Counted from the stretch's first letter, positions 1 through 27,104 are shown. The stretch: DNA of 64,000 nucleotides from an uncultured Acidimicrobiaceae bacterium (GCA_963831155.1 CAWHOY010000007.1:68800-132799), one strand, 5' to 3'. A program made the numbers and translations. Notes: a model not told the origin generated them from the sequence alone.

Positions 1-303
1 CTCGTGCAGAGCTGTCTTGCCGACAATCGAGGCGCCGGCACCGCGCAGAGTCGCCACGACCGGCGCGTCGTGTGGCGCTGGTACTGCCCCATGGAAAGCA
101 GCAGAGCCGGCACGCGTCGGACAGCCGGCCACGTCAATCAAGTCCTTGATCGCCACCGGAATGCTGGCGAATGGTCCATTGTCCATGAACTCGGGGTGAA
201 GAATCTGCGTGTAGGCACCACCCTCAGCGACCGAGCGTCTCATTTCGAGCGCCCGCGAGTGCGTCCCTTTCGGATCGCGCCGCGCATCGGCGAGCGAGAT
301 CAA
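1..303 (-). CDS. amidase (amidase-signature family), N-terminal part only; continues beyond the window edge
   Basis: Minus-strand translation reads ...FASIPVAIKDLIDVAGCPTRAGSAAFHGAVPAPHDAPVVATLRGAGASIVGKTALHE, a typical amidase N-region. It is absent from the ORF track because it is open at the window edge. The start is TTG 303 (TTGA overlap with the upstream stop) or ATG 243. Confidence 0.6.
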   Translation of the reverse strand, partial: MISLADARRDPKGTHSRALEMRRSVAEGGAYTQILHPEFMDNGPFASIPVAIKDLIDVAGCPTRAGSAAFHGAVPAPHDAPVVATLRGAGASIVGKTALHE

Positions 304-1148
304 TCGAGCAAGCGCTGTTCGAGCGCCTCGAGACGTGCACCGAGGGCAGCGGCACGATCTTCGCTCAACTCGACCCCGAACGCGCGTGCCGCCGCATCGA
401 CCCTTTCGGTGCCAGTCGACTCGCTCAGTTCGTTCCTTGCATCGGACGGAGCGAGGTACGAACGCACGTCGATCCGGTAACTGAGCTCGAGCGCCGCTCC
501 AGTCTGGCGGTCGGAGAGTTCGGCGCGGAACTCAGATCCTCCGCGCAGGCCACCAATCGCGGGCAGCGTCCCGCAGAGCACGACGAACGAACGCGGTCTC
601 GCCCTCCATGGGATCGCGCCGAGAATGTCGACAGGCGACAACAGTGCTTCGGTTGAACCGTCTTGATAGAGGTCGTTTGTCTCGGTGCCGATCCAGCTGC
701 GGAGCCACAAGCTGTCCCAGTGGTCGGCGACGTCGGACAGCGTCCACGCGTGCTGCGCGAGCACTTTGTGACAAACGCCCTTCGACAGCGCGACATCGAT
801 CCGCTCAGCGGCACGATCTGTGTGGTCTGAGGCGATGGTGACATAGACCTCGTCGCCCGCGACGAGCAGTGCGACCTCCGCCTCGCCGGACGTCTCTTCG
901 GCAGTCGTGATGAGTTGCTGGCTTTGGGTGAGCAGCGCAGGCGGAAGCGGATAGAAACACGGCACCGATTCAGGCGGCTCGATGCCATGCTCGGCAAGTT
1001 CGCGAACGTGGGAGAGGACGGCCTCGTGATCACGTCCGGTGTATCCCGCGACAATGAGAATCTCCGGCTCGAGCGCGACGTTGCCGCCCGTCGGTTCGAG
1101 CTCGAAGCGCAAGAACCGATCGGCCAGATTCTGCGTGGGCTGTTTCAC
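300..1148 (-). CDS. DUF2848-like protein
   Basis: 282-aa ORF. The RFELEP...ILIVAGYTGRD...VPCFYPL pattern was recognised as DUF2848-like from memory. It is co-directional with, and overlaps, the downstream amidase. Confidence 0.5.
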   Translation of the reverse strand: MKQPTQNLADRFLRFELEPTGGNVALEPEILIVAGYTGRDHEAVLSHVRELAEHGIEPPESVPCFYPLPPALLTQSQQLITTAEETSGEAEVALLVAGDEVYVTIASDHTDRAAERIDVALSKGVCHKVLAQHAWTLSDVADHWDSLWLRSWIGTETNDLYQDGSTEALLSPVDILGAIPWRARPRSFVVLCGTLPAIGGLRGGSEFRAELSDRQTGAALELSYRIDVRSYLAPSDARNELSESTGTERVDAAARAFGVELSEDRAAALGARLEALEQRLLD

Positions 1149-1269
1149 CTTTCAGCGCCGACCCGCCGCAGGGCGTGTTGACTCCGCCGCTGCCTTCCCG
1201 TCGCCCTCAACGGCGCCCTTTTCCGAGCGCATCTCGGTTCCCAGTTCCATTTCGATCCTCACCCGGCCG

Positions 1270-1283
1270 GTAGTATACTACAT
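1270..1283. promoter_or_regulatory. operator-like palindromic box S1 (minus-strand reading ATGTAGTATACTAC)
   Basis: The inner 12-mer GTAGTATACTAC is a perfect palindrome. It lies in the divergent intergenic region between the DUF2848 gene and the hydratase/lyase gene. It is identical to the box at 16139-16152. Confidence 0.55.
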
Positions 1284-1353
1284 GCTACATCTGTTTCGAG
1301 AAATGGATGCTCCCTCATCACCGGACCGATAGACCCCAGACATAAGGCGCGAC

Positions 1354-1375
1354 GGGAGGGCCCCTTGGCCCTCCC
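1354..1375 (+). other. perfect 9-bp GC hairpin in the 5' leader of the hydratase/lyase operon
   Basis: GGGAGGGCC-CCTT-GGCCCTCCC, ending 31 nt upstream of ATG 1407. There is no U-tract after it. Confidence 0.4.
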
Positions 1376-1406
1376 TCCGAGATCCAAAGCGAGGTCGACC
1401 GAGTAA

Positions 1407-2225
1407 ATGTCCAGCTACAAGACCGTGAAGATCGAGCGGGAAAACGGCGTCTCATTCGTCGTGTTGAATCGGCCGGAGAAGAAGAACGCCATGAATCCGA
1501 CGATGCACTACGAGATGCTGGAGGTGTGGGACGAGCTCGAATTCGACGCTGAAACCCGGGTTGTCGTCCTCACCGGCGAAGGCGACAGCTGGTGCGCCGG
1601 CCAGGATCTGAAAGAGTCCTTCCTCGAAACCGCCAACAATCCGCTGGAGCTACGGCGCTCCTCCTGGGCGGCGTCGGAGTGGCGGTGGCGCCGCCTCTAT
1701 TACTTCCCGAAGCCGACGATCGCGATGGTGAACGGCTACTGCTTTGGGGGCGGCTTCACCCAGCTGATCGCCTGCGACTTCGCCATCTCCGCCGAGGAAG
1801 CAACGTTCGGGCTCAGCGAGGTGAACTGGGGATCGTTCCCGGGCGGACTCGTCAGCCGCGTCCTTGCCGAGGTGCTGGGCACGCGCGACGCCCTCTACTA
1901 CATCATGACCGGCGAAACCTTCGACGGCCGGACCGCGGAGAGGATGCGCCTCGTCAACGAGACGGTTCCGCTTTCGGACCTCCGCAAGACCACATTGACG
2001 CTCGCCGACAAACTCCTCAGCCTCAATCCGCACACGCTGCGCGCCTGCAAAGAGGTGTACAAGCACGTGAAGGACATGGACTACGAAGATGCCGAGGACT
2101 ACATGTGGGCGAAGCTCGACATGCTCACGGTCCTCGATCCGGGCGGTCGCCAGCGCGGGATCAGACAATTCGTCGAGGACAAGAGCTACAAGCCTGGATT
2201 CGAGTCGTACGAGCACGATGACTGA
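1407..2225 (+). CDS. ech: 4-hydroxycinnamoyl/feruloyl-CoA hydratase-lyase-like crotonase
   Basis: 272 aa. NRPEKKNAM, KPTIAMVNGYCFGGGF, EATFGLSEVNWGSFPGG and YYIMTGETF align with my recollection of Pseudomonas HCHL along the whole length. Confidence 0.75.
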   Translation: MSSYKTVKIERENGVSFVVLNRPEKKNAMNPTMHYEMLEVWDELEFDAETRVVVLTGEGDSWCAGQDLKESFLETANNPLELRRSSWAASEWRWRRLYYFPKPTIAMVNGYCFGGGFTQLIACDFAISAEEATFGLSEVNWGSFPGGLVSRVLAEVLGTRDALYYIMTGETFDGRTAERMRLVNETVPLSDLRKTTLTLADKLLSLNPHTLRACKEVYKHVKDMDYEDAEDYMWAKLDMLTVLDPGGRQRGIRQFVEDKSYKPGFESYEHDD

Positions 2226-3429
2226 CGAGCAGCCGACGCCGCTGCTCGAGGGTTTCACCGCGCTCGACCTGTCGGGGAACGAGGGACAGTTCGCCGGACG
2301 TCTGCTCGCCGACCTCGGGATGCGCGTAATCAAGGTCGAGCCACCGAGCGGGGATGTCGTCCGCAGCATCGGGCCGTTCAAGGACGATCTCGTCGACCGC
2401 GAGGCGAGCCTTCGCTTCGCATTCTTGAACGGCGGTAAAGAGAGCATCACCCTCAACTTGGAGAACGCCGACGGCCGAGCGATGCTCCTCGATCTCGTCA
2501 CCCACGTCGACGTATTGATCGAGAGCTTCCCCCCCGGGTTCCTCGACCATCTCGGCGTCGGTTTTCGGCGCCTTCACGAGCGCAACCGTCAGCTCGTCAT
2601 AGTCTCCATCACTCCGTTCGGACAGAACGGCCCGCACGCGGACTATCTGGCGACCGACATCGTCGGTGTGGCGATGGGCGGGATCATGTTCATCTCCGGA
2701 GATCCGAGCCTCCCGCCAGTACGCCCGCCTGAGACGCAGTCGTTCTATTACGCCTCGATCTACGCGGCCTACGCGGTGTTGCTCGCGCTCTTCAAGCGTG
2801 GCGAGGACGGCGACGGGCAATACATCGATGTCTCGATCCAAGAAAGCGTCGCCTCGCAAGAACACATGATCCGCGAGGCGGCATTCGACGGCGTACAAAT
2901 CACGCGCAATGGCAGCCAACACAAGCACACGTCGCCGGCGAACATCTTTCCGTGCACTGACGGTTACGTCTATCTCTTCATCCTGGGCGCGCGTGATTGG
3001 GAGCGCCTGCTCGAGTTGTGGACCGATCATCCGATTGAGCTCGACGCTCCGGAGCTGAGGGCGCCCGGGCGTCGCCGCGCCAAAGCGGCGGCGATCAATC
3101 CGCTCGTCGAACAGTTCACCTCGCGTTATTCCAAGCGTGAACTGATGGGTTATCTGCAAGAAAACGGGATCCCTTGCCTGCCGGTCAATTCGCCGCGCGA
3201 CTTCCTCGGAGAAGAACAAGTCCGCGTCCGGGAGTTCCTTGGCGACGTGGAAAGCGCCTCGATCGGCCGATACCAGGCGCCACGGTTCCCCGCACTCTTC
3301 GACGGGCAGCGTCCGCCGGTCGCCGGCCCCCCACCACAACTCGGAGCGGACAGCTCGGCGATCTACCACGAATGGCTAGGGCTCGACGCCGACGAGCTCG
3401 AGCTGCTCGCGGCGAGAGGCGTGGTCTAG
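2218..3429 (+). CDS. CoA-transferase family III (CaiB/BaiF type), copy 1
   Basis: LDLSGNEGQFAGRLLADLGMRVIKVEPPSGD is a typical family III N-terminus. The ATG at 2218 overlaps the upstream stop. The longer track ORF (2089) is rejected. Confidence 0.85.
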   Translation: MTDEQPTPLLEGFTALDLSGNEGQFAGRLLADLGMRVIKVEPPSGDVVRSIGPFKDDLVDREASLRFAFLNGGKESITLNLENADGRAMLLDLVTHVDVLIESFPPGFLDHLGVGFRRLHERNRQLVIVSITPFGQNGPHADYLATDIVGVAMGGIMFISGDPSLPPVRPPETQSFYYASIYAAYAVLLALFKRGEDGDGQYIDVSIQESVASQEHMIREAAFDGVQITRNGSQHKHTSPANIFPCTDGYVYLFILGARDWERLLELWTDHPIELDAPELRAPGRRRAKAAAINPLVEQFTSRYSKRELMGYLQENGIPCLPVNSPRDFLGEEQVRVREFLGDVESASIGRYQAPRFPALFDGQRPPVAGPPPQLGADSSAIYHEWLGLDADELELLAARGVV

Positions 3430-3431
3430 AG

Positions 3432-4631
3432 ATGGAGAGTTTCCTTTCCGGTATCCGCGTCGTCAGCCTTTCGACAGGCATCGCCGGTCCGAACGCCGCA
3501 CGCGGCCTCGCCCTATACGGAGCCGAGGTGTTCAAAGTCGAGTCGCGCGCCGGCGGTCTCGACGCCTTCCGCTCCTACGGCGACAACCCCGAGGCATCCC
3601 CGCGCTTCGTCGAGGTCAACCTCAACACCCGATCGCTGACGCTCAACTTGAAGCGCCCGGAAGGGATCGCCCTCTTCAAGGAGCTCGTCGCGAAGTCCGA
3701 CGTCGTGATGGACAACTTCCGACCGCAGGTGCTCCCCCGCCTCGGACTCGGACCGGACGACCTCCTGGCGGTCAATCCGCAGGTGATCGTGGTGCGCATG
3801 CCCGGACTCGGTTCGCAAGGACCGCTCAGCGCATACGGCACCTGGGGTCCGACACTTACCGCGTACTCGGGGCTCACCTACCTCTGGAACCATCCGGGCC
3901 AGGAACGCCCGATCGGCTCGCAGGGTGTCTACCCCGACTACCTGACGGGAGCGGTCGTGCCGGCGATCGTCGTCGCCGCCCTGTTACGCAGACGCCGTAC
4001 CGGCACGGGGACGGCGATCGACGTCGCCCAGATGGACCTCGCCGCCTACACACTCGGGACGGTCTTCCTCGACGCCACCGTCAACGGTCGCGACCCGCAG
4101 CCGGTCGGCAACACCTCGCCGCACATGGAGCCACACAACAGCTTCCCGTGCCTCGGAGACGACCGTTGGTGCGTGATCGCCGTGGAAAACGACGCGCAAT
4201 GGGCGGCGCTCTGCGCGGTGATCGACGAAGAGGCGCTCGCGTCGGACGAGCGATTCGCGACGCTGCGGACGAGAAAGGCGAATCGCGACGAGCTCTTCGA
4301 GATCATCGCGAAGTGGACGCGACGCCACGAGGCGACTTCCGTGATGGAGCAGCTGCAGCATGCCGGCGTCCCGGCAGGTGTCGTGCAGGGAGGCAGTGAT
4401 CTCGCGGTCGACGCGCAGCTCGAAGCGCGCGGCTACATCGAGATCGTCGAGCACCCGATCCTCGGCAAGATGCCGATGGCGGGAATGCCGATGCACTTCA
4501 GCGCTGGCCGGCACGAAGCGCTGAAGAGTCCTCCCCCGCTCGGGTCGGACAACGAATACGTGATCACCGAGATCCTCGGTTACAGCGTTGACGACTTGAA
4601 GCGGTGGGAAACAGAGGAGGTCGTTTACTAA
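3432..4631 (+). CDS. CoA-transferase family III (CaiB/BaiF type), copy 2
   Basis: The N-terminus MESFLSGIRVVSLSTGIAGPNAARGLALYGAEVFKVE fits family III. The ATG lies 2 nt after the upstream TAG. It is a tandem paralog of the previous gene. Confidence 0.85.
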   Translation: MESFLSGIRVVSLSTGIAGPNAARGLALYGAEVFKVESRAGGLDAFRSYGDNPEASPRFVEVNLNTRSLTLNLKRPEGIALFKELVAKSDVVMDNFRPQVLPRLGLGPDDLLAVNPQVIVVRMPGLGSQGPLSAYGTWGPTLTAYSGLTYLWNHPGQERPIGSQGVYPDYLTGAVVPAIVVAALLRRRRTGTGTAIDVAQMDLAAYTLGTVFLDATVNGRDPQPVGNTSPHMEPHNSFPCLGDDRWCVIAVENDAQWAALCAVIDEEALASDERFATLRTRKANRDELFEIIAKWTRRHEATSVMEQLQHAGVPAGVVQGGSDLAVDAQLEARGYIEIVEHPILGKMPMAGMPMHFSAGRHEALKSPPPLGSDNEYVITEILGYSVDDLKRWETEEVVY

Positions 4632-4702: not shown

Positions 4703-5740
4703 ATGGAGTTCGGACTTGTCCTGGGGCCGTTCCTCCCGCCACGAGAGGAGATGACCTCGCAGGACGCGCTCACCCTGCAAATGCGGTTCGCCGAACGCGC
4801 CGCCAAATCGGGCTTCGACTGCGTGAGCATGGGCCACCACTATCTTTCGGGTCCGCTCGCGCAGTTCTTCCAGCCGATCCCGCTCGCTGGGGCGATCCTC
4901 GCCCGGTATTCGTCCCTTTCGGTGGCAACCACGATCTTCCTCCTCCCGTATCACAACCCCGTGGAGATAGCTGAAGCTGTCGCCACCCTCGACGCCCTCG
5001 CTCCAGGACGTTTTGTGCTCGGCGTCGCCCAGGGATACCGCCGCGACGAAGCCGAAGCAGTGGGAATTAACCACTCGAGCCGCCAGCAACGGCTGACCGA
5101 GTCCATCACCGCAATGCGACTCCTCTGGCAAGGTGGTCCAGCGAATTTCGAAGGCAAGTACTTCCGGTTTCACGACGCCGACATCGGCATCACGACCAAA
5201 AGTCCGACTGGCCCGCCCATAATTGTTGGGGCCGATACCATCGGCTCGATCCTCCGCATTCCTGTGATCGGCGGCGACCACTGGCTTCCGAGTCCACGCA
5301 ATGGGACGACATTTATCAAGAAGGTGCTTCCCGCTTACATCGAATCTGTCCGTAAAGCGGGCCGCGATTTCCTTGGCATCCCAATCATGCGAAGCGTTTA
5401 CGTATCGACGGACGAACATTCAGCCCAAGAGGCGCTTGTCAAAGCGGTGCGACGCATGTCCGCCATCCAGGCGAAATGGGGCCAGCCGGGTGAGCGATCA
5501 AGACCCGATTTCGACCAGATCCGGAGAGAGAAGCAGATCATCTTGGGGAGCACCGAACAGATCGCTGAGTCGATCGTCGAGCTATACCGCGAGATCGCTG
5601 TCAGGTGCATCTTCCTCCATTGCTATACCCCGGGGATGGACCCTGAAGCATCACTCGACATGGTCGCTCAGCTTGGTGAGGAGACGCTGCCACTTGTGCG
5701 CAAGGAAATCGGATCGGATTCCTTTTTGTTGAACCACTAG
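4703..5740 (+). CDS. LLM-class (luciferase-like) flavin/F420-dependent oxidoreductase
   Basis: MEFGLVL...FDCVSMGHHYL...PVEIAEAVATLDALAPGRFVLGVAQGY matches the family. An AGGAAGGAAG RBS precedes ATG 4703. Confidence 0.8.
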   Translation: MEFGLVLGPFLPPREEMTSQDALTLQMRFAERAAKSGFDCVSMGHHYLSGPLAQFFQPIPLAGAILARYSSLSVATTIFLLPYHNPVEIAEAVATLDALAPGRFVLGVAQGYRRDEAEAVGINHSSRQQRLTESITAMRLLWQGGPANFEGKYFRFHDADIGITTKSPTGPPIIVGADTIGSILRIPVIGGDHWLPSPRNGTTFIKKVLPAYIESVRKAGRDFLGIPIMRSVYVSTDEHSAQEALVKAVRRMSAIQAKWGQPGERSRPDFDQIRREKQIILGSTEQIAESIVELYREIAVRCIFLHCYTPGMDPEASLDMVAQLGEETLPLVRKEIGSDSFLLNH

Positions 5741-5805
5741 TGGAGCTCTGTTGCCCGAAGTCGTATCGCCGATGCCCGCGTGCTACGACAGCCACAGCCG
5801 GACGT

Positions 5806-6570
5806 TCAGCCTGGCATGTTCCCTCCGCCGTCGACGACAAGCACTTGTCCCGTAATCCAGGAGCTCATCTCGCTAGCAAGGAAGAGCATCGGCCCGACAA
5901 TGTCGGCTTCCGAGCCGAAACGCTTGATGCACCTCCACTCCAAGAAACTGCGAACGACCTCCTCTGAGATCTCAGCTTCGTCGCCGGTTATCACCGGACC
6001 CGGCGCGATCGCGTTGACCCGTATGCGGTAAGGGGCAAGCTCGCGGGCGAGCGAGCGGGTGATGGGAGGTATCGCTCCTTTCGACACCGTGTAATGGATC
6101 CGTCCAGGCGGGTTCTGCCAGATCGCGGGTGATGTCTGATTGATGATCACGCCACCTCCGCGGGACCGCATCAAAGGAGTGACGGCGCGCGTGGCAAGCA
6201 GAATCGACGTCAAGTTCATCGCCAGCACCCTCTCCCACAGCTCAAGGACCATGTCCTCGAGCGGATCTGGCGGCGGAAGTGGCAATCCTTGAAACATCGC
6301 GGCGTTATTGACAAGGACGTCTGCGCCGCCGAAGGCATCGCCGACAGCATTCGCCATCTCAAGGGTGCTTGCTTCGGAGGTGACGTCCGTCGGAACGAGG
6401 AGCGGTTCGTGACCAGCCTTCCGCAACACGGAAACTGTCGTGTCGCCCGATTGCTCTCCGTCGGCGATTACGACGCGCGCCCCTGCCTCCAGCAGACCGC
6501 GGCCGTAGGCCGTGGCGAATCCTCCCGGGCCGGTAACGATCGCTACCTTGCCGTCGAGTCCAAATGCCAT
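5806..6570 (-). CDS. SDR-family oxidoreductase
   Basis: 254 aa. KVAIVTGPGG glycine-rich motif, NNAA, and YTVSKGA catalytic Y-x3-K. Confidence 0.85.
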   Translation of the reverse strand: MAFGLDGKVAIVTGPGGFATAYGRGLLEAGARVVIADGEQSGDTTVSVLRKAGHEPLLVPTDVTSEASTLEMANAVGDAFGGADVLVNNAAMFQGLPLPPPDPLEDMVLELWERVLAMNLTSILLATRAVTPLMRSRGGGVIINQTSPAIWQNPPGRIHYTVSKGAIPPITRSLARELAPYRIRVNAIAPGPVITGDEAEISEEVVRSFLEWRCIKRFGSEADIVGPMLFLASEMSSWITGQVLVVDGGGNMPG

Positions 6571-6737
6571 ATGCCTCCTTCGAGCGGTTCGCGATCGAGA
6601 TGACCAGAGTCACATTCATTCTGCTACGAATTACGCGGAAACGATCTAGAGACTTGGCTCGTGTATTCCACGACATTCTCTAAAAGAAATACCCATTGTC
6701 GTCGGTTAGCGTCGATAGAGATGTAGCGAGGACTTGA

Positions 6738-8321: not shown

Positions 8322-8536
8322 CGTCATAACAAAAGGAGACCAGCGGCGCACGTAACTGCGCGACGCGACCGACGCCGTACAAGCTTCGTGAAGGGGACTT
8401 TCAACTGGGAGCGGAGGCACCCTTGAGGATACGTCGCTGCGCGCAGATCTCGAACTGTGCAATCACCGCATCTTTCGCGAAAACCAGTTTCGCGTTTACG
8501 GGTGCTGGCAAAGTGATCAATGACAGTCTGAGACGG

Positions 8537-9190: not shown

Positions 9191-9420
9191 GCTTTACTCC
9201 TCGCTCCAGAGCGGATCGGATATTGCCGGGCAATCCATCGATCGAGTGATCACACGAGATGCTTCACCGTGCGTTGAAAGAGCCTTGCACCGCGAGCGCG
9301 GCGATGAACGACTTGACTGTTCGACGCGGGACTTGGCGGGATCGGCTCACAGAAGCGAACGCACGGGTTGCTAGTCAACGGAACACCACAACATCGAAAT
9401 TAGGACGTCCTGTCGGCGGC

Positions 9421-9445
9421 TAGTATGTCAGATGTCAAATACTAC
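9421..9445. promoter_or_regulatory. split version (S5) of the palindromic box
   Basis: The minus strand reads TGTAGTAT-TTGACATCTGAC-ATACTAG. Both half-sites of the box are present but 12 nt apart. The site ends 25 nt upstream of the cupin-1 ATG. Confidence 0.35.
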
Positions 9446-9470
9446 AAATGGTCAATAAGAGAGGATACGC

Positions 9471-9884: not shown

Positions 9885-10085
9885 CGATCCCGGGGTAGCG
9901 GCATCTGTGCGCAGCCGCGCATACGGGCGATTCCGCGCTGTTGCCGAGATGTCGGGTTTCGTGAAGATCGACGACTTCGCCGTGGGCATGCAGCGCTGCA
10001 GCGGCGTTGAACGCAACTGCGATTTCGAAATCGGAGGCCGACGACTAACTGGAAAACCGGACTAACAATTAGGGAGGGTGAGAAC

Positions 10086-10496: not shown

Positions 10497-10509
10497 AGGT
10501 GAGGATTCG

Positions 10510-17108: not shown

Positions 17109-17122
17109 ATGTAACATACTAG
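17109..17122. promoter_or_regulatory. operator-like box S3 (ATGTAACATACTAG)
   Basis: It lies in the divergent intergenic region between two isochorismatase-like genes, ending 18 nt upstream of ATG 17141. Confidence 0.5.
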
Positions 17123-17140
17123 CTCGAGGATGCCCTTGAG

Positions 17141-19554: not shown

Positions 19555-19881
19555 ATGTCTCAGTACGTCATCATCGCCAGTCATCGACCCGACCTCTGCC
19601 CCATCTCAAACGCGACGGTGCGCGCCCGGGTCACTGCCGGCATGTCACAGCTCAAGTCCGAGCGGGCACCATCTACTGGCGTCACCTTCACGGTTGACCC
19701 GGTCCACTTGGACCCGAGCCACCGGACGATTGCATTCGTCGAAGCGCCGAACATCGAAGCCGTCACCAAGCTCGTCTCGACCATCGGACTGTCGCAGTGG
19801 AATGAGGTCGAGGTTTGGCCGGCGACGCCGACCTTCGAACTGTTCTCGAATCTCGACGATGTTCCGCCGCTGTTCTCGTGA
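19555..19881 (+). CDS. hypothetical small protein (possibly DUF3303-like)
   Basis: 108-aa ORF placed tightly within the operon. No motif was recognised with confidence. Confidence 0.4.
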   Translation: MSQYVIIASHRPDLCPISNATVRARVTAGMSQLKSERAPSTGVTFTVDPVHLDPSHRTIAFVEAPNIEAVTKLVSTIGLSQWNEVEVWPATPTFELFSNLDDVPPLFS

Positions 19882-19974: not shown

Positions 19975-21609
19975 ATGTCGGCAAGCAGGCCGAGCGCCAG
20001 AGTAGACTACGACGTCGTCGTCATCGGCGCCGGCTTCGCCGGGCTGTACATGGCGTACAAATCAATGCAGCTCGGCTTCACGACCATCGGCGTCGAGGCC
20101 GGCGAGGGGGTCGGCGGCACGTGGTTTTGGAACCGCTACCCAGGCGCGCGCGTCGACGTCCAGTCGGTCGAGTACTCATTCAGCTTCTCGAAACAGATCC
20201 AGCAGGAGTGGAACTGGACCGAGCTGATGGCCGCCCAGCCGGAGGTCGAGGCCTATCTCAACCATGTCGCCGATCGCCTCGACATCCGCCGGCATGTGTT
20301 GTTCTCGAGTCGTGTGACGGCGATGACATTCGACGAACGCTCGGCGACATGGGAAGTCGTCACCGATCGGAACGGGCGCTTCCGCTGCCGCTTCGTCATC
20401 GCCGCAACCGGCTGCCTCTCGGTTGCGCTCGAGCCTCAGATCCCGGGTCTGGAGACCTTCGGCGGTGACTCCCTGTACACGAGCCGCTTCCCGCCTGAGG
20501 GCTACGACTTCACTGGCAAACGGGTCGCCGTCATCGGCACCGGGTCCTCCGGGGTGCAGGTGATACCCGAGATCGGCCTGCAGGCGGAGCATCTCGCCGT
20601 CTTTCAAAGATCCGCCGCCTACACCAGGCCGGCGAACAACCGGCCCTTCGAGCCGGGCGAACTCGAAAGGATCAAGGACAGCTACGACGACCTCCGGGCC
20701 AAAGAACGCGCCTCGAACTTCGGGCTGATGCAACTCGGGTCGATGGTCGTCGAAGGAATCGAGCCGCCGATACAACGCATCCTCGACACCCCAATGCCGG
20801 ATCGAATCGCCAAGCTCGACGTTCTCGGCTGGGACGCCCTTCACGCATGGGCCGACGTGACGACGGACCTAGAAGCGAACAAGGCGGCGACCGAGCTCTA
20901 CGCGATCCAGATCTCGCGGCTCGTGCGCGATCCCGCGACGGCGCGGTCATTGATCCCCTGCTATCCGATGGGATGCAAGCGGCAAATCTTCGACATCGGG
21001 TATTTCGACACCTTCAATCGCCCCAACGTTCGCCTCGTCGACGTCGCGGCGAACAACATCGTGGGCATCACGCCGAAGGGGATCGACACCGAAACCGAGT
21101 CGTTTGGGTTCGACGTGATCGTCTACGCGACGGGATTCGACGCGATGACGGGTGCGCTCAACCGAATCGCGATTACCGGCAAGAGAGGCGAGACGCTTTC
21201 AGCGGTTTGGAGGCAATCAGGTCCTGTCTCTTACCTCGGTCTGCAAGTCGCTGGCTTTCCCAACCTCTTCACCATCACGGGGCCCGGCAGCCCTGCGGTC
21301 GTGACGAACATGGTCGTGTCGATCGAGCAGCACGTCGAATGGATCGCTTCGTGCTTGGACCATCTGAGCCGGAACGACTATTCGACGATCGAAGCCGACC
21401 CCACGGCCCAGGACCGATGGGGCGACCATGTCCGTTCGCTCTCGGAGGGCCTGATCAGGACGGCACCGACGTGCAACTCCTGGTACCTCGGCTCGAACGT
21501 CCCGGGTAAAAAGCGCGTCTACATGCCCTATGCGGGGGGCCACGCGCGGTATCGGAAGGAGTGCGATGAAATCGCGGAGTCGAAGTACGAAGGATTCATC
21601 CTGAGCTAG
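19975..21609 (+). CDS. Baeyer-Villiger (type I flavin) monooxygenase with atypical fingerprint
   Basis: 544 aa. VVVIGAGFAGL, GGTWFWNRYPGARVD and VAVIGTGSSGVQ fit the family. The fingerprint position reads FGGDSLYTSRFP rather than FxGxxxHxxxWP. Confidence 0.8.
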   Translation: MSASRPSARVDYDVVVIGAGFAGLYMAYKSMQLGFTTIGVEAGEGVGGTWFWNRYPGARVDVQSVEYSFSFSKQIQQEWNWTELMAAQPEVEAYLNHVADRLDIRRHVLFSSRVTAMTFDERSATWEVVTDRNGRFRCRFVIAATGCLSVALEPQIPGLETFGGDSLYTSRFPPEGYDFTGKRVAVIGTGSSGVQVIPEIGLQAEHLAVFQRSAAYTRPANNRPFEPGELERIKDSYDDLRAKERASNFGLMQLGSMVVEGIEPPIQRILDTPMPDRIAKLDVLGWDALHAWADVTTDLEANKAATELYAIQISRLVRDPATARSLIPCYPMGCKRQIFDIGYFDTFNRPNVRLVDVAANNIVGITPKGIDTETESFGFDVIVYATGFDAMTGALNRIAITGKRGETLSAVWRQSGPVSYLGLQVAGFPNLFTITGPGSPAVVTNMVVSIEQHVEWIASCLDHLSRNDYSTIEADPTAQDRWGDHVRSLSEGLIRTAPTCNSWYLGSNVPGKKRVYMPYAGGHARYRKECDEIAESKYEGFILS

Positions 21610-21652: not shown

Positions 21653-23062
21653 CTACGCGCCGACGAGGGATCTCGACTCGGCGACGAGATCGATGGCGCT
21701 CGAGGGTGGACGGCGCAGGTACTCGCCGAAACCCTCTTTGCCGACGATCTCGCCGTCTTTCATCACCGTTTGGCCGCGGACGAGCGTCTGCACCGACCAT
21801 CCCTTCAGCCGTTCTCCTTCCCAAGGCGAGAAATCAGCCCGGGACTGCAGGTAGCCGGCGTCAACGACCATCTCCTTGTCGAGATCGACGATGGCGAGGT
21901 CGGCGTCACTTCCGACCTCGATCGCCCCTTTGCGCGGGTAGAGGTTGAAGATTCGCGCCGTGTTGTACGAGGAGATCTCGGCGATCCGCTGCAGACTGAC
22001 CCCGCGGCGGTGGTAGCCCTCGGTGAGCAGCACCGAGAGCATCGTCCCGACCCCTGGGAAGGCGGATCCCGCCTTCCACACTCCTCCTTCTTTGTCCGCC
22101 CGGAAGCGAGCCGAATGGTCGCACCCGACCGTGTCGACCTGACCGGCCTCGACCGCCGCCCACATTGCGTCGACGTCCTTCGCCTTGCGGACCGGAGGGT
22201 TGACCTTCGCAAGCAGCCCGCATGGCGAGTCGATCGTGAGCGAGAGGTAGTGCGGGGTCGTCTCGATAAAGACCGGCGTCTCGTTGCTGCGAATGCTCGC
22301 GAATTCTCGCGCCGACTCCTCGCAGCTCATATGGACGAAGTACACAGGACAACGCGTTGTCCTCGACATGAACGCCGCGGTCATCATCGCCGTCGCTTCT
22401 GCCACTGGCGGACGCGCCGCATAGTGCGCCTTTAAGCCGTCGAGTCCTTGTTTTTTGACTTCCTCCTCGGCACGCCAGATCATCTCGATGTCCTCGGTAT
22501 GGACGTTGACGATCGCGCCGGGGATACCCGCGATCGTCTCGAGCAGCTCGTAGAACAGCCCGTCGTCGGTGGTTCCAACGCCGCGCGCTGTCCCCTCGTT
22601 GCCCTTGTAACTCATGAAGAGCTTGAACGACGAGATGCCGAGATCATTGATGTAATGCGGGATCTTGGCGATGTGCTCCGAGGAGAAGATCCCGAGGTGA
22701 ATCCCCATGTCGACGTAGGCGAGGCGGTCGATGTGGTCGAGGAACTCGTCGTAGTCGGCCTTGTAGGAGCCCGGCTTCAAGATGTAGTTGAGAATCGAGG
22801 TTGCCCCCCCGATGGCGGCCGATCGGGTCTCGCTGCTGACGTCGGAGAGCGGCTGGCCGACGAAGCCGATGTGCATGTGCGGATCGATGAGTCCGGGGAA
22901 GATAAAACGACCTTTCGCATCGATGTCCACGTCGGCACTGACGGACTCGTCCGGTTCTAACAGCGCGGCGATCTTGCCCTCACGGATGGCGATGTTGATC
23001 TTGCGCAATCCGTGGGCCGGGATGACCGCCGTGCCGCTCCTGATCACTGTGTCGAAACTCAT
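21653..23062 (-). CDS. dihydropyrimidinase/hydantoinase-type cyclic amidohydrolase
   Basis: 469 aa. GLIDPHMHIGF, a later K for carbamylation, VHTEDIE and GSDADLAIVD give the amidohydrolase-superfamily pattern. Confidence 0.85.
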   Translation of the reverse strand: MSFDTVIRSGTAVIPAHGLRKINIAIREGKIAALLEPDESVSADVDIDAKGRFIFPGLIDPHMHIGFVGQPLSDVSSETRSAAIGGATSILNYILKPGSYKADYDEFLDHIDRLAYVDMGIHLGIFSSEHIAKIPHYINDLGISSFKLFMSYKGNEGTARGVGTTDDGLFYELLETIAGIPGAIVNVHTEDIEMIWRAEEEVKKQGLDGLKAHYAARPPVAEATAMMTAAFMSRTTRCPVYFVHMSCEESAREFASIRSNETPVFIETTPHYLSLTIDSPCGLLAKVNPPVRKAKDVDAMWAAVEAGQVDTVGCDHSARFRADKEGGVWKAGSAFPGVGTMLSVLLTEGYHRRGVSLQRIAEISSYNTARIFNLYPRKGAIEVGSDADLAIVDLDKEMVVDAGYLQSRADFSPWEGERLKGWSVQTLVRGQTVMKDGEIVGKEGFGEYLRRPPSSAIDLVAESRSLVGA

Positions 23063-23143: not shown

Positions 23144-24193
23144 TCAATAGCCGTACTTGGCGGCGACTTTCTTCGCCCGGTCGCGATCGCCCTTCAGCTC
23201 CGCACGCCCCGAAAGCTCCGCGTAGGCGTCCTTTGCCATGTCGAGTTGGGAGATCTTGCTCGGCTCGACGTAATCGTCGATCGCCCCGATAGCGACCGCC
23301 TCTTTCAGGTACCCCTCGAGACCGGTCGGCAGCCCGTCGATCGGGAAGGGCATCATCTCGGCCTGCACCGCCGATCCGAACTGCGCCATGCGGACGCGCT
23401 CGTCGGGATCGGGGCTCCGCCTCCGCAGGCGCGCCTCGATCGCCGCGGTGAGTTCGATGTTGTCGGGCTGACGGCGGATGAACCAGTACGCCCGGATCAT
23501 CCCCTTGATGAACGCTGTGAGGTCATCGGGCCGCTCATCGATCGCCTTCTCGGTAGCTGCGATCACACGGTCGGGGCGACCGTCTGGGTAGTGCGCGCCG
23601 ACATCGAAGATCTGCACGTACCCCTCGTCGAGCAACCCGGGGAGATCGAGACTGTCGACGAACGACGCGTCGGCGCGCCCCTCTCGCAGCGCGAACGGTC
23701 CCCGCCGTGTGTCGATGCCCGTCACCCACTCGATGTCGTTTTGCGGATCGATTCCTTCTTGAATAAGCCAGTACGTGAGCATCGTCACGAGAATGTCGTC
23801 GGGATCGATAATGCCGACTCGCTTGCCGACGAGATCCCTTAGCGTCGACACGCCGGAACGGCCGACGACGTAGAAGGCCATTTGGTTGCGCCACCCGGCG
23901 ATGACCCGTAGCCCCTTTCCTTGTTGCTGGAGGAAGGCGACGGTCGAGGGCTTGACGTCCATCGTCACGTCGATCCCGCGTTCTTTCATCGTCTGCCAAA
24001 GCGTCTGCTTCTCGAACATGAACGGCGCGTGGCTGTCGGGGACGATCTCGTAGGTCTCAAGACCGTCTTCGTCGCGGAGTCCCTCGTCGTAGAAGTAGTT
24101 GAGCTCGTCGGCGATCGTCGGAGGGACGAGGTGCAACACGTGATAACAGGATGGGCCGATGCGAAGCGGGCGGCGGCTGCGACCGCGGGTCAC
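23144..24193 (-). CDS. NMT1/THI5-like binding-protein fold, no signal peptide, copy 2
   Basis: GTG 24193 overlaps the TGA of cupin paralog 3 (GTGA). The upstream part of the 421-aa track ORF is rejected because it overlaps the cupin gene. Confidence 0.55.
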   Translation of the reverse strand: MTRGRSRRPLRIGPSCYHVLHLVPPTIADELNYFYDEGLRDEDGLETYEIVPDSHAPFMFEKQTLWQTMKERGIDVTMDVKPSTVAFLQQQGKGLRVIAGWRNQMAFYVVGRSGVSTLRDLVGKRVGIIDPDDILVTMLTYWLIQEGIDPQNDIEWVTGIDTRRGPFALREGRADASFVDSLDLPGLLDEGYVQIFDVGAHYPDGRPDRVIAATEKAIDERPDDLTAFIKGMIRAYWFIRRQPDNIELTAAIEARLRRRSPDPDERVRMAQFGSAVQAEMMPFPIDGLPTGLEGYLKEAVAIGAIDDYVEPSKISQLDMAKDAYAELSGRAELKGDRDRAKKVAAKYGY

Positions 24194-24597
24194 GCGCTCT
24201 GGACCTTCTTGATGTTGGCGCTGAACGCTTCGATCGTGTCCGCCGCTTCCTTCGCCGGATTGAACTCGATGTTCTCGAAGTCCTCGATCGCGTACAGCTT
24301 GTGGCCCGGGGGCGCGTAGTAGAGGTCGCCGCCGTTGATCGTGACCTCCCGACCGTCCGCCATCCGCAACAGCGCCTTTCCCTTCACGAGGTAACCCCAG
24401 TGCGGGCACTGGCAGAGGTCCTCAGGGAGCCCCTCCCACGCCGCGTCGCCGCCGGGGGGGAATCCGCCCGGGACGCGTTCGAAGGCCATCGCGTACCCCT
24501 CCCACTGTGCCCATTGCGCCTGATAGGCACCCATGCTGACGACGGGAAGATCGTCCTTGGCGATGGTCAGACCGTCCGGCGAATAGAGCTCGGCCAT
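24190..24597 (-). CDS. small cupin, CQCPH family, paralog 3
   Basis: 135 aa from ATG 24597: MAELYSPDGLTIAKDDLPVV..., CQCPHWGY, GDLYYAPPGH, FENIEFNP. The longer track ORF (to 25236) is antisense to the aldehyde dehydrogenase gene and is rejected. Confidence 0.75.
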   Translation of the reverse strand: MAELYSPDGLTIAKDDLPVVSMGAYQAQWAQWEGYAMAFERVPGGFPPGGDAAWEGLPEDLCQCPHWGYLVKGKALLRMADGREVTINGGDLYYAPPGHKLYAIEDFENIEFNPAKEAADTIEAFSANIKKVQSA

Positions 24598-24652
24598 TTT
24601 CGACGACTCCTCTACTGTTCTGGGCGCCAGGGCCACCGGTGGCGCGATTCGT

Positions 24653-24666
24653 ATGTAGCATACTAG
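24653..24666. promoter_or_regulatory. operator-like box S4 (ATGTAGCATACTAG)
   Basis: It lies in the divergent intergenic region between cupin paralog 3 (ATG 24597) and the aldehyde dehydrogenase (ATG 24739). Confidence 0.5.
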
Positions 24667-24738
24667 GCGAGCTTTGGAGCGAGAAAATCCAGGCCACAAG
24701 CGGCAAACAGCGTTGCCGAGGCCCTGCGAGGGGGAGTC

Positions 24739-26262
24739 ATGACCACCACCGCCACATCCTTCGCCCAGGACTTCGTCGCCGGTCAGTCCTTCAAGATGCT
24801 GATCGGCGGGAGGTTCATCGGTGTCGATGAGCACCACGGTGCCGTCTTCGAAACGGTCGACCCGTCGACGGGGCTCACCCTCGCCGAGGTTCCCGATGCC
24901 GACGGAAGCGATGTCGGGCTCGCCGTCGAGGCCGCGCGCGGGGCGCAAGCGGCGTGGGAAAAGCTCGGCCTCGAGGGTCGCTCCGAGTGCTTTGCGCGCT
25001 TTTCGGCACTCCTCAAACAGAACCGCGAGCGCATCGCCATGCTCGATGCTGTCGACTGCGGCAATCCGATCCGCGCAATGCGCGTCGACGTCGACCTCTG
25101 TCAGGAGTACCTGCGCGCCTATCCGCCCATGGCGTGGGGACTGCACGGACGGGTGCACGAGATGAACCGCGGCGGTCTCCACTACACGATCTCCCGCCCG
25201 TACGGAGTGACCGGGCGGATCCTCGCCTTCAATCACCCACTACTCTTCGCCGTGTCGCGGGCGCTGCCAGCGCTCATCGTCGGCAACACGCTTGTCATGA
25301 AGCCGGCGCCGCAGACACCGCTTTCGGCGCTCGCGCTCGGCGAGCTCTTCGCCGAAGCCTTTCCCCCCGGCGTCGTCAACATCTTGAGCGGCGGCGCTCC
25401 GGCCGGCGAGGCGATCGTCCGCCACCCGGAGGTGAAGCGGATCTCGTTCACCGGCAGCGTCCGAACCGGTCTCGCCATCCAGCGCACGGCCGCCGACAGC
25501 GGGCACGTGAAGCACGTCTCGCTCGAGCTCGGCGGGAAGAACGCGATGGTCATCTTCCCTGACGTCGACGTCGAGGCGGCCGTCGAGGGCGCGGTGTTCG
25601 GCATGAACCTTGGCGTGTGCCAGGGCCAATCTTGTGGTTCAAATTCGCGCGTCCTTGTCCATAAGAAGATCCACGACGAGTTCGTTGAGGCGCTCGGGGC
25701 GCGTCTCGATCGCTTCCGCGTCGCGACCGCGTACGACGAGGCCTCGGAGATGGGGCCGCTCGTCACTCGGGCTCACCTCGAACGGGTGGCTGGATACGTC
25801 GCCAAGGGCAACGAGGAAGGCGCGCGCCTCGTCACGGGCGGCGGACGGCCTGAGGAGGTGCCGGATGGGGGCTATTTCATGCGCCCGGCTGCTTTCGATC
25901 GTGTCGAACAGTCGATGACGATCGCTCGCGAGGAGATCTTCGGTCCGGTGGTGAGCGTTCTCGACTGGGACGACTTCGATCAGATGGTCGCCACCGCCAA
26001 CGCCGTCGACCTCGGCCTCACCGCGAGTATTTGGACGAACGACTTGAACCTCGCCCAAAAGTCGGCGGAGCTCCTCGATGCCGGCTACGTGTGGATCAAC
26101 GACAGCACGGTCCACTACGTGGGTACGCCGTTCGGAGGCACAAAAGACAGTGGAACAGGGCGCGAGGAATCCGAAGAGGAGTTACTCAGCTTCTTAGAGC
26201 AGAAAGCGGTACACACAAAACTCGCTTCGCCCGGTATCGCAATGGAAAGGCACGGCTGGTAG
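24739..26262 (+). CDS. NAD(P)-dependent aldehyde dehydrogenase
   Basis: 507 aa with VSLELGGKNAMVIF, a QGQSCGSNSR catalytic-Cys region and EEIFGPV. Confidence 0.9.
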   Translation: MTTTATSFAQDFVAGQSFKMLIGGRFIGVDEHHGAVFETVDPSTGLTLAEVPDADGSDVGLAVEAARGAQAAWEKLGLEGRSECFARFSALLKQNRERIAMLDAVDCGNPIRAMRVDVDLCQEYLRAYPPMAWGLHGRVHEMNRGGLHYTISRPYGVTGRILAFNHPLLFAVSRALPALIVGNTLVMKPAPQTPLSALALGELFAEAFPPGVVNILSGGAPAGEAIVRHPEVKRISFTGSVRTGLAIQRTAADSGHVKHVSLELGGKNAMVIFPDVDVEAAVEGAVFGMNLGVCQGQSCGSNSRVLVHKKIHDEFVEALGARLDRFRVATAYDEASEMGPLVTRAHLERVAGYVAKGNEEGARLVTGGGRPEEVPDGGYFMRPAAFDRVEQSMTIAREEIFGPVVSVLDWDDFDQMVATANAVDLGLTASIWTNDLNLAQKSAELLDAGYVWINDSTVHYVGTPFGGTKDSGTGREESEEELLSFLEQKAVHTKLASPGIAMERHGW

Positions 26263-26336
26263 CAACGGATTAGGCCGGCACGGCTTCGCGTTCTCAATCG
26301 TTCGATCGCCACGATGGGGGCGCTCCGATCCTCTCG

Positions 26337-27104
26337 GTGCAGCGTCAGGTGGTGACGCTCCTCGAGCTCGTCGTGCTCGTCGGCGCGCTCTCCTTTGTTT
26401 CGGGGATGCTCGGCATCGGCTCCGCGTTGGTCGTCGCGCCCGTTCTCGCCCTCTTCGGCTATGCACTGAAAGACGTCGTTCAGCCCTGGGCGCTCCTGCT
26501 CAACGCCACGACATCGTTGAGCGCCAGCATCAGCTTCATCCGGGCCCGGATGGTCGATTACCGCACGGTGGTGCCAGTCGCCGTTATCTGCACGCTCGGA
26601 GCTCCACTCGGAGTGCTCATCGCCGATCGCGCTTCGACAACCCTCATCTGGTGGCTGTACATCGCCGCACTCTTCTTCGTCGCAATCCGGATGCTCGCCC
26701 CGCAAGGACAACGAAGCGAATCCGTCGCAAAGATCCCGCGAAGGGCACGGCGAGCGACCGACATCGCCTCCGTCCCGATCAGCGTCTTCTCCGGTTTCCT
26801 CGGAGTCGGCCCGGGGTTCCTGCTCGTTCCAATGATGATGGCAGTCGGACTTTCGGCTCGCCTCGCGGCGGCGACCAACTCGCTCGCCGTCGTCGTGCCA
26901 TCGTTCGCTGCGTTCGGCACCCACCTCGGAACGGCGCGGCTCGATTGGACGACCGTGATCGCGACCTGCGCGGTCGGTGTCGTGACGAGCATCGCCGGGG
27001 CGTCGTTCACTGTCAGCAAAGTGCGTTCCCGGCCATTGGCGGTGGTATTCGCATTCGTGATGATCGGGCTAGCAATCGAAAGAGCGGTCGTCCTTTTGCG
27101 CTGA
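26337..27104 (+). CDS. TauE/SafE-family sulfite/anion exporter-like membrane protein
   Basis: 255 aa with about 7-8 hydrophobic helices. GMLGIGSALVV and a second GFLGVGPGFLLVP repeat are typical of the family. Confidence 0.7.
   Translation: MQRQVVTLLELVVLVGALSFVSGMLGIGSALVVAPVLALFGYALKDVVQPWALLLNATTSLSASISFIRARMVDYRTVVPVAVICTLGAPLGVLIADRASTTLIWWLYIAALFFVAIRMLAPQGQRSESVAKIPRRARRATDIASVPISVFSGFLGVGPGFLLVPMMMAVGLSARLAAATNSLAVVVPSFAAFGTHLGTARLDWTTVIATCAVGVVTSIAGASFTVSKVRSRPLAVVFAFVMIGLAIERAVVLLR

Follow-up and report, generated by a model that had tools for sequence, protein, structure and literature searches.

The window studied here, a stretch of 64,000 nucleotides from the genome of an uncultured Acidimicrobiaceae bacterium (GCA_963831155.1, contig CAWHOY010000007.1, abbreviated C7, positions 68800-132799), opens with a crowd of hydrolases, oxidoreductases and CoA-thioester enzymes, and raises the question whether these genes serve a single catabolic system and, if so, on what kind of compound. 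In the reading put forward here they belong to an island that is controlled by one GntR/FCD regulator and breaks down an imported aromatic or heteroaromatic acid along a so far undescribed pathway; the probability of this reading is put at roughly one half. The genome (G000; 2.88 Mb, 8 contigs, ~64% GC) has its nearest named relatives among metagenome-assembled genomes of Acidimicrobiales. It was compared at the DNA level with four species of the same genus (G001-G004), the 20 kb directly upstream of the window (L002) were fetched for the analysis, and genes were called from an open reading frame (ORF) listing together with Pfam and NCBIfam scans. An initial annotation had listed a gene inventory for positions 1-27104, nearly all of which was confirmed by these scans.

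Island limits and a common operator

The comparison with the four congeneric species delimits an island of 35,279 bp (C7:60621-95899), which extends from L002:11821 to window position 27100 and contains about 35 catabolic genes plus its own GntR/FCD regulator. The limits of 1-27104 given originally have to be moved, as the true start lies 8.2 kb upstream of the window, which carries the larger part of the island. At the 3′ limit, in the TauE gene, synteny with G001, G002 and G004 stops at about 27100, and flank homology with G003 begins at 27101. In G003 both island flanks are located ~10 bp apart, with a clean 35,279-bp difference from G000; this species appears to have deleted the island, because the island's terminal SDR gene has left a frameshifted remnant of its 3′ end at the joined flanks. 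The flanks are adjacent also in G001 and G002, which carry the island at another chromosomal place, while G004 contains the island core and has copies of both G000 flanks on other contigs or far away. The island is thus lost or relocated as a single block.

The units of this block share a 12-bp palindrome, GTAGTATACTAC, with a central GTATAC. At up to two mismatches, three matches are present in the window, against 0.12 expected, and five of the eight matches in the whole genome fall inside C7:62257-93454. A symmetrised matrix trained on seven island sites and run over all 2.88 Mb with a cut-off of 14 bits returned eight sites of at least 14 bits, every one within the island; the sole site that had not been used in training is found in the short divergent region between the UbiD gene and the regulator gene, directly before the latter. 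Seven of the eight sites are located at divergent promoters and the remaining one precedes the importer operon; the SDR_B/amidase 1 region is the only divergent region of the island without a site. The regulator combines an N-terminal GntR winged helix-turn-helix with a C-terminal FCD domain (Pfam), and a 12-bp palindrome with central GTATAC fits the operators of FadR-subfamily GntR proteins.

Three sister species share both the box and the gene set. Palindrome matches at up to one mismatch occur in the sister species exclusively inside the island, and in G003 the island, the GntR orthologue and the box are missing together. At orthologous promoters the box is kept with 0-3 mismatches in G002, G004 and L009 and with 1-2 mismatches in the metagenome contigs L010 and L011; at the promoter shared by the DUF2848 gene and the hydratase/lyase gene discussed below, mismatches are zero in the former three and one in the latter two. 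It is kept also at the promoters between the PhtD-like and CMD genes and between cupin 3 and the aldehyde dehydrogenase (ALDH) gene, while the surrounding sequence has diverged. A further contig, L019, shows boxes with 2 mismatches upstream of its GntR, CMD and cupin genes, the first directly before the regulator gene. The island is most likely one regulon under the GntR/FCD protein, and the box before the regulator gene suggests autoregulation. The initial annotation had proposed that the genes function together, a view borne out by the operator at eight promoter regions confined to the island, that of the regulator included, and by the conservation of boxes and gene set elsewhere. The opposite picture, of operons never co-located elsewhere and independently regulated, fails because of this shared island-confined box and the recurrent gene set.

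Three overlapping copies of the operator, forming a 28-bp array, precede the NitT/TauT-type importer of the congeners (L004:317-344 in G002 and L005:16701-16728 in G004); no equivalent triple array was found in G000.

Conserved core and altered hydratase/lyase

Neighbourhood comparison showed that the co-location recurs not only in congeners but also in unrelated metagenome contigs, which were located through homologues of DUF2848 and of the p-hydroxycinnamoyl-CoA hydratase/lyase (HCHL)-like enzyme (hereafter ECH). Compact clusters of 13-19 core genes, with 40-82% identity, are present in L010, L011 and L019. In L011 one strand carries the Liv importer, with a 678-aa fused permease, the hydantoinase-like gene, two CaiB genes and ECH, and the divergent side carries DUF2848, ALDH, SDR, NMT1_B, cupin, SDR_C, the cysteine hydrolase Isoc3, NMT1_C, another SDR, the PhtD-like gene, CMD, PNPOx and UbiX; the arrangement of L010 is nearly the same, and in both the Liv importer orthologues beside the cluster are 58-68% identical. 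L019 contains PhtD-like, GntR/FCD, LLM (non-orthologous to that of G000), hydantoinase-like, Isoc3, CMD, SDR and Liv importer genes, followed by ECH-CaiB-CaiB-NMT1_C, UbiD, NMT1_B, a substrate-binding protein and a cupin. The ECH-CaiB-CaiB-NMT1_C series is found with a Liv system also in L018 (Dehalococcoidia according to NCBI), so that NMT1_C directly follows this trio in L018 and L019, and the adjacent CaiB pair is kept in L009, L010, L011, L018 and L019. Isoc3 orthologues have 68-72% identity in L010, L011 and L019. In the more distant Chloroflexota contig L020, ECH is linked with NMT1-fold, UbiD, isochorismatase-like and cupin genes. DUF2848 and this special type of HCHL were not found in a sample of 36 genomes that belong to other genera of the family and order; 3 of these genomes encode a canonical HCHL with 54-55% identity.

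Within the genus, the islands of G002 and G004 contain orthologues of 22 genes, with 67-96% protein identity; among them are those of amidase 2 (73-76%), and LLM orthologues of ~73% are found in G002, G004 and L009. Absent from the congeners are the BVMO gene, in place of which they have ~100-140 bp, and a segment of lower GC (window ~5750-17150) that holds SDR_B, amidase 1, Isoc1, cupins 1 and 2, a DUF4286-like gene, the Liv importer and Isoc2. An orthologous pair of cupins 1 and 2 exists nonetheless, in G004 within the island between UbiD and GntR and in G002 at 713 kb from it. At the corresponding positions the congeners have a NitT/TauT-type ABC system, a PGA_cap protein and a FAD flavoprotein. 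The G002 FAD_binding_2 flavoprotein (L003:10721-12215) is split in overlapping ORFs of 265 and 375 aa, probably by a frameshift or an assembly error, and its L009 orthologue is a single 496-aa gene.

The chemistries that had been combined into one route are accordingly only in part common to all cluster versions. BVMO, amidase 1, Isoc1 and Isoc2 were found in G000 only, and no counterparts of this LLM, amidase 2 and TauE were found beyond the genus; these seven, together with the DUF4286-like gene, can be classed as accessory by this comparison. The core would comprise the Liv importer, the HCHL-like enzyme, the two CaiB proteins, the hydantoinase-like protein, one cysteine hydrolase, the decarboxylases, the small cupins and the SDRs, with DUF2848 and ALDH as core members in most versions of the cluster. 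The description of the island as paralog-rich does not hold for most pairs, which are old superfamily relatives (21-38% identity); close paralogs are only SDR_A/SDR_B (68%) and the cupins (46-69%).

The HCHL-like enzyme exceeds the NF006588 cut-off (386.5 against 276 bits) and matches Pseudomonas fluorescens HCHL (PDB 2vsu/2j5i) at E 1e-97 over nearly its full length. Alignment to the latter shows that the catalytic Glu143 (FGLSE(143)VNWG) and the oxyanion-hole Gly151 are kept, while four positions are changed: Met70 to Gln, Tyr75 to Ser, Ser123 to Thr and Tyr239 to Trp. Tyr75 and Tyr239, the pair characteristic of HCHL (EC 4.1.2.61), hold the 4-hydroxyl (phenolate) of the substrate in the HCHL complexes PDB 2VSS and 2VSU. 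Two solved HCHLs and three from sister genera have Tyr at both positions; the island enzyme, in which these residues are numbered 71 and 234, and all six cluster orthologues have Ser and Trp. The canonical enzymes of the sister genera retain Met70 as well and are located in other gene contexts. Among the 120 closest database relatives (63-99% identity), none has the Met70, Tyr75 and Tyr239 signature, all have Gln70 and none has Tyr239, the island subtype being Q-S-T-E-S-F-W. Gln70 thus appears to mark a large uncharacterised clade of the HCHL family. Since both phenol-binding tyrosines are replaced, and lineage and Glu143 are kept, we infer that the enzyme performs the HCHL type of reaction on another ring.

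Activation of the substrate may be assigned to the CaiB pair. The start of CaiB1 overlaps the stop codon of the HCHL-like gene, and the closest solved relative of CaiB1 is a benzylsuccinate CoA-transferase subunit (E 4e-48, ~168 bits). Family III CoA-transferases are obligate dimers, of which heteromers have been solved, and CaiB1 and CaiB2 may be the two subunits of a heteromeric enzyme. No CoA ligase, feruloyl-CoA ligase included, is present in the island.

Several other products point to an aromatic or heteroaromatic carboxylic acid, namely UbiD/UbiX, a dihydroxyphthalate-decarboxylase homologue, a Cupin_7 protein and DUF2848. UbiX lies above its family cut-offs (NF004685, 250 against 188; TIGR00421, 229 against 109). 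UbiD has all three of its domains (UbiD_N, UbiD and UbiD_C), scores 192 bits against the TIGR00148 cut-off of 245, and is closest to 6h6x (E 5e-50), which we take to be the furandicarboxylate decarboxylase HmfF, and then to AnInD (E 2e-33). Over positions 8-336, the profile of SBPlike_A matches 9jp7, a 4,5-dihydroxyphthalate decarboxylase, at E 1.6e-76, and the protein lacks a signal peptide, which places this PhtD-like protein, as judged from profile and sequence, in that decarboxylase family and in the cytoplasm. NMT1_B and NMT1_C are likewise devoid of signal peptides, while the binding protein of the importer has a lipoprotein signal; this absence makes a role as enzyme or as binder in the cytoplasm more likely than one in transport, for these two as for the PhtD-like protein. 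No PDB relative was found for the importer binding protein at E 1e-3 or better, and its permease is similar to UrtB and UrtC, the permeases of urea transporters.

The AlphaFold2 model of DUF2848 (pLDDT 90.5) gave 50 listed Foldseek matches in the PDB, all 50 to the FAH family, with probability 1.00 and TM-scores of 0.48-0.71, and the predicted fold is that of the FAH superfamily. The motifs G-E-x-E and S-D-H-T-D-R are invariant, as are E77, E79, D96 and D99, an acidic cluster that would bind a metal; the protein probably hydrolyses, decarboxylates or isomerises a 2-oxo or diketo acid in a metal-dependent manner. Outside the Acidimicrobiales cluster, in all three distant contigs examined (L012, L013 and L014), DUF2848 adjoins a small Cupin_7 gene (L013:10001-12524, and around 10000 in L012 and L014), once beside an HpaB-type hydroxylase, which suggests that Cupin_7 and the FAH-fold protein form a ring-fission pair.

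As for the amide-cleaving enzymes, the triad D51, K154 and C187 (Asp-Lys-Cys) is invariant in Isoc1-3 and also in two orthologues. The nearest relatives of Isoc3 are N-carbamoylsarcosine amidohydrolase and 3ot4, an entry of the isochorismatase family, and the top scores with the RutB, BiuH and nicotinamidase equivalogs are 42-82 bits, against cut-offs of 174-378. In the hydantoinase-like protein the metal ligands, assigned by motif position, are found in DPHMH at residue 60, SFKLFM (Lys), NVHTED and YFVHMS; its scores are 283 against 393 for TIGR02033, 249 against 358 for allantoinase and 222 against 650 for ErtD. The accessory Baeyer-Villiger monooxygenase (BVMO)-like protein has Rossmann motifs at residues 18 and 188 and the sequence GGTWFWNRYPG; its fingerprint reads FGGDSLYTSRFP, against FxGxxxHxxxW[P/D], with His replaced by Tyr and Trp by Phe, and its top equivalog is PtlE (247 against 1100).

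Proposed route and its rivals

In the route proposed here, the GntR/FCD protein would bind GTAGTATACTAC at the eight divergent or operon promoters, its own included, and would release them when a pathway metabolite is present. The acid would be imported by the Liv-type ABC system, or by the NitT/TauT-type one in sister species, and converted to its CoA thioester by the two-gene family III CoA-transferase. The HCHL-like enzyme would hydrate the thioester and split it, in a retro-aldol step, into acetyl-CoA and an aldehyde, which ALDH would oxidise to a ring carboxylate. UbiD/UbiX and the 4,5-dihydroxyphthalate-decarboxylase-like enzyme would then carry out one or two decarboxylations. The hydantoinase-like protein and the carbamoylase- or maleamidase-like cysteine hydrolase, with extra amidases in the G000 strain, would remove an amide, imide or ureide function, and the small cupins, as putative dioxygenases, would complete ring fission together with DUF2848. 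Regulator binding, order of the steps and substrate class are what we infer from the gene set. The side-chain cleavage with which the route had been thought to end would stand early in it, and ring fission late, as suggested by the upstream decarboxylase genes and the FAH fold.

The favoured substrate is an acid of the aryl- or heteroaryl-acrylate type, lacking the 4-hydroxyphenyl group and carrying nitrogen. The original statement that the substrate is not assignable still stands after this analysis, an N-heterocycle, cyclic imide or ureide being possible. Urocanate or thiourocanate, indole-3-acrylate, o-coumarate or coumarin, maleimide-type pyrrole fragments and pyridine or pyrrole polycarboxylates were considered, and none is preferred on the evidence. 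A fuller version of the proposal, in which a non-phenolic and probably N-containing aromatic acid (a heteroaryl-acrylate, or a carboxylated imide or ureide) is degraded by a Gln70-clade HCHL of new specificity, a heteromeric CoA-transferase, enzymatic cytoplasmic NMT1-like proteins and a ring-fission pair made of CxCPH/Cupin_7 cupins and DUF2848, is offered tentatively.

Several points weigh against the reading as one regulon with one pathway. Apart from the HCHL-like enzyme and UbiX, every enzyme lies below the curated equivalog cut-offs, and the gene roles and the class of substrate are predicted from sequence. Seven of the eight matrix sites had served to train the matrix, and the pairing of the GntR/FCD protein with the palindrome is deduced from their co-occurrence. 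We identified neither an acyl-CoA dehydrogenase nor a ring hydroxylase in the island, nor any recognised ring-cleavage dioxygenase; the CxCPH motif is unusual, and the dioxygenase role of the cupins is a guess. The two NMT1-fold proteins are unexplained: the model of NMT1_C, built from a 5-sequence alignment, has a pLDDT of 43.7, a profile search against the PDB gave weak transporter-domain matches only, and an Atlas search gave generic NMT1 clusters only. Finally, DUF2848 and ALDH are absent from the 20 kb seen around L019, and UbiD is not adjacent in L010, because of which the gene set may be modular rather than one linear route.

This last point leads to the main rival, a modular regulon in which one regulator governs several short routes (an arylacrylate side-chain module, cyclic-amide hydrolysis and decarboxylase modules) for related compounds. 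Besides the variable composition just mentioned, the swapped importer types of G000 and its sister species, the distant cupin pair of G002 and the extra amidase, isochorismatase, BVMO and importer genes gained by G000 are in its favour. However, the HCHL-like enzyme, both CaiB proteins, the hydantoinase-like protein, Isoc3, NMT1_C, cupin, PhtD-like protein and CMD occur together in four separate lineages, the L011 hydantoinase-like gene shares one operon with ECH and CaiB, and all units have one operator type, so that separate routes are considered possible but doubtful. The ordinary ferulate or p-coumarate pathway, with HCHL, a vanillin-type dehydrogenase and a vanillate, 4-hydroxybenzoate or protocatechuate decarboxylase next to unrelated amidohydrolases, would account for the score and structural matches of ECH and for the presence of ALDH, UbiD/UbiX and the dihydroxyphthalate-decarboxylase homologue. 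It is nevertheless unlikely: the 4-hydroxyl-holding tyrosines are replaced in every orthologue and kept in the canonical HCHLs of sister genera, which stand elsewhere, their signature is missing from all the closest relatives, no feruloyl-CoA ligase accompanies the genes, a hydantoinase-like gene belongs to the ECH operon of L011, and UbiD is nearer to 6h6x and AnInD than to protocatechuate decarboxylases.

A variant of pyrimidine, hydantoin or creatinine degradation (Rut, Pyd or hydantoinase-carbamoylase), with the CoA enzymes processing a C3 product, could draw on the core status of both the hydantoinase-like and the N-carbamoylsarcosine-amidase-like genes, on the LLM, SDR and ALDH genes and on the urea-type permease; but the scores are 34 against 498 for RutA, 42-64 against 378 for RutB and 283 against 393 for dihydropyrimidinase, no gene like PydA or PydC (dihydropyrimidine dehydrogenase, beta-ureidopropionase) or like RutC, RutD or RutF was seen among the scanned island genes, and the HCHL-type lyase, UbiD/UbiX, the PhtD-like decarboxylase, the cupins and the FAH-fold protein would be left unaccounted for, which makes this variant very improbable. 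The original view that no textbook pathway matches is in fact upheld: of the Rut, Pyd, hydantoin, nicotinate and ferulate equivalog cut-offs, only that of HCHL is reached, and it does not amount to a ferulate match because the enzyme lacks the ferulate-binding tyrosines. That independent operons were brought together by chance in a variable region would suit an island which is accessory and mosaic, with a low-GC insert (~5750-17150) and BVMO found in G000 only; a common operator confined to the island, a gene set that recurs in distant contigs and loss or relocation as one block have largely refuted it. An organosulfur or DMSP function, suggested by the cupins, CaiB, ECH, TauE, the SsuA-like fold and LLM, was set aside, as ECH firmly belongs to the HCHL lineage and TauE and the G000-type LLM are outside the conserved core. 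The single regulon for an imported aromatic or heteroaromatic acid is retained as the preferred reading.

Gene complement and known systems

The features of the island within the window are collected in Table 1. Its upstream part, in L002, encodes an SDR, the 4,5-dihydroxyphthalate-decarboxylase homologue SBPlike_A, CMD/AhpD-like, PNPOx-like and UbiX proteins, a second SDR, a Cupin_7 protein, UbiD, the GntR/FCD regulator (L002:18377-19189) and the remainder of amidase 2. The Cupin_7 gene is a conserved 112-aa ORF (L002:16239-16577); a 222-aa ORF at L002:16280-16948 was rejected, being the antisense frame of UbiD.

Table 1. Genes and operator boxes of the island in window coordinates (L002 where stated)
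Feature	Position	Strand	Remarks
Amidase 2, 5′ part	1-303	minus	Amidase-signature family; runs upstream to L002:19070 (L002:19070-19999); ~410 aa; Pfam Amidase E 5e-55 on upstream part
DUF2848	300-1148	minus	PF11010, 211 bits
Operator box GTAGTATACTAC	1270-1281		Perfect palindrome; between DUF2848 and HCHL-like operons
HCHL-like enoyl-CoA hydratase/lyase (ECH)	1407-2225	plus	Non-canonical clade; NF006588
CaiB1, family III CoA-transferase 1	2218-3429	plus	PF02515 (CoA_transf_3)
CaiB2, family III CoA-transferase 2	3432-4631	plus	CoA_transf_3; 28% identical to CaiB1
Luciferase-like (LLM) oxidoreductase	4703-5740	plus	Top family matches are F420-dependent classes, all under cut-off
SDR_B	5806-6570	minus	Paralog of upstream SDR_A (68%); first gene of low-GC, G000-only segment
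Amidase 1	6738-8321	plus	Amidase-signature family; G000 only
Isoc1, isochorismatase-like cysteine hydrolase 1	8537-9190	minus	G000 only
Operator box, degenerate	9434-9445		3 mismatches, 18.6 bits (matrix); precedes cupin 1
Cupin 1	9471-9884	plus	Small, CxCPH-type
Cupin 2	10086-10496	plus	Small, CxCPH-type
Small protein	10510-10851	plus	Weak DUF4286 match (dimeric alpha/beta-barrel family), E 6.6e-4, under cut-off
Liv-type ABC importer operon	11097-16072	minus
Importer ATPase	11097-11819	minus
Importer ATPase	11812-12645	minus
Importer permease	12642-14714	minus	Fused LivH/LivM, 690 aa
Importer lipoprotein, substrate-binding	14753-16072	minus	Signal peptide with lipobox
Operator box, perfect	16141-16152		Precedes importer operon
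Isoc2, isochorismatase-like cysteine hydrolase 2	16257-16985	minus	G000 only
Operator box	17111-17122		3 mismatches, 20.8 bits; between divergent Isoc2 and Isoc3
Isoc3, isochorismatase-like cysteine hydrolase 3	17141-17890	plus	Core gene
SDR_C ORF	17698-18690	plus	SDR domain from residue 83; true start probably near 17940
NMT1_B	18633-19541	plus	NMT1/SsuA fold, no signal peptide; orthologues 40-46% in L010, L011, L019
108-aa protein	19555-19881	plus	No family assigned; 75% identical counterpart in G004
BVMO-like flavoprotein	19975-21609	plus	G000 only
Hydantoinase/dihydropyrimidinase/allantoinase-family cyclic amidohydrolase	21653-23062	minus	Core; orthologues 61-68% in L010, L011, L019
NMT1_C	23144-24193	minus	Predicted cytoplasmic, NMT1/SsuA fold; core gene
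Cupin 3	24190-24597	minus	Core CxCPH copy; 62-73% identity in L010, L011, L019
Operator box	24655-24666		2 mismatches; between cupin 3 and ALDH; conserved in G002, G004
ALDH	24739-26262	plus	NAD(P)-dependent; 71% identical to gene directly after DUF2848 in L010, L011
TauE/SafE-family anion exporter	26337-27104	plus	Last gene of the island

Some entries of the initial annotation need correction. Both of its amidases exist, the second being cut by the window edge and continuing on the minus strand into L002. The protein called EthD-like has only the sub-threshold DUF4286 match (20 bits against 25.8). Three small cupins are located in the island, and a fourth (27705-28064, CxCPH) lies just beyond the boundary, in a short piece found in G000 only (27634-28190); the synteny with G003 breaks at this piece, and a tblastn match across cupin 4 has one in-frame TAG. 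The conserved N-terminal lobe of NMT1_B (18633-18947) is upstream of the first ATG/GTG/TTG codon (18948) and is covered by the alignments of the G002 and G004 orthologues, which makes it likely that translation begins at a non-canonical codon or is coupled to the stop codon of the SDR gene. Outside the island, window positions 39050-40000 (ORF 39264-40310, minus strand) are 100% identical to two places in G003 and have 65-84% matches at further places in G001, G003 and G004, several of them in the last; the segment looks like an insertion sequence, either very recently shared between species or cross-assembled.

The enzyme families of the island are all known, and the novelty lies in how they are combined, in the regulon and in the altered clade of HCHL. 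Literature searches turned up no description of the cluster and no paper about DUF2848. The island provides a regulator-linked genomic context for DUF2848, the CxCPH cupins and the cytoplasmic NMT1-fold proteins, families without assigned function. Proteins of the Gln70 clade, routinely annotated as p-hydroxycinnamoyl-CoA hydratase/lyase in Acidimicrobiia, Chloroflexota, Binatia and Deltaproteobacteria, lack the specificity-defining residues, so that these annotations are probably wrong about the substrate. Because the cluster has a regulator and a binding protein of its own and a sharply defined operator, the substrate may be sought by ligand screening without cultivation, and the island illustrates how a large catabolic unit is gained, lost and remodelled in uncultured Acidimicrobiales.

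The nearest known system is the CoA-dependent non-beta-oxidative hydroxycinnamate pathway (Fcs-Ech/HCHL-Vdh in Pseudomonas and Amycolatopsis, CouAB in Rhodopseudomonas palustris), with which the island shares the HCHL lineage with Glu143 and Gly151, an ALDH as the next enzyme of the route and a Liv-type importer, as in the CouP system. Unlike that pathway, it has Ser75, Trp239 and Gln70, would activate its substrate by the CaiB pair and not by an AMP- or ADP-forming ligase, adds ring-amide hydrolases, two kinds of decarboxylase, cupins and an FAH-fold protein, and has a GntR/FCD regulator in place of MarR. The adjacent, diverged CaiB genes, with 28% mutual identity, resemble the heteromeric family III CoA-transferases BbsEF (PDB 9fn0) and SmtAB of Chloroflexus; BbsEF is the best solved match of CaiB1, although the similarity amounts to ~168 bits and the heteromer is here predicted from the genes.

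Ring hydrolases paired with an isochorismatase-like hydrolase are known from cyclic-imide and hydantoin routes (the Blastobacter imidase, hydantoinase-carbamoylase, and creatinine to N-carbamoylsarcosine), whereas the island pair stays below all equivalog cut-offs and is tied to CoA-thioester and aromatic-acid decarboxylase genes. With the UbiD/UbiX decarboxylases dependent on prenylated flavin mononucleotide (6h6x, AnInD and AroY) it has in common a UbiX above cut-off and the three UbiD domains, but its UbiD does not reach the cut-off of the subfamily. The alignment of SBPlike_A with 4,5-dihydroxyphthalate decarboxylase (9jp7) spans almost the whole protein, while the phthalate dioxygenase and dihydrodiol dehydrogenase genes are missing from the island. 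Finally, the regulator resembles the GntR/FadR-subfamily (FCD) repressors in its winged helix-turn-helix and FCD domains and in the palindrome at divergent promoters, its own included, and differs from them in the unusual size of its predicted regulon, with eight sites and ~35 genes.

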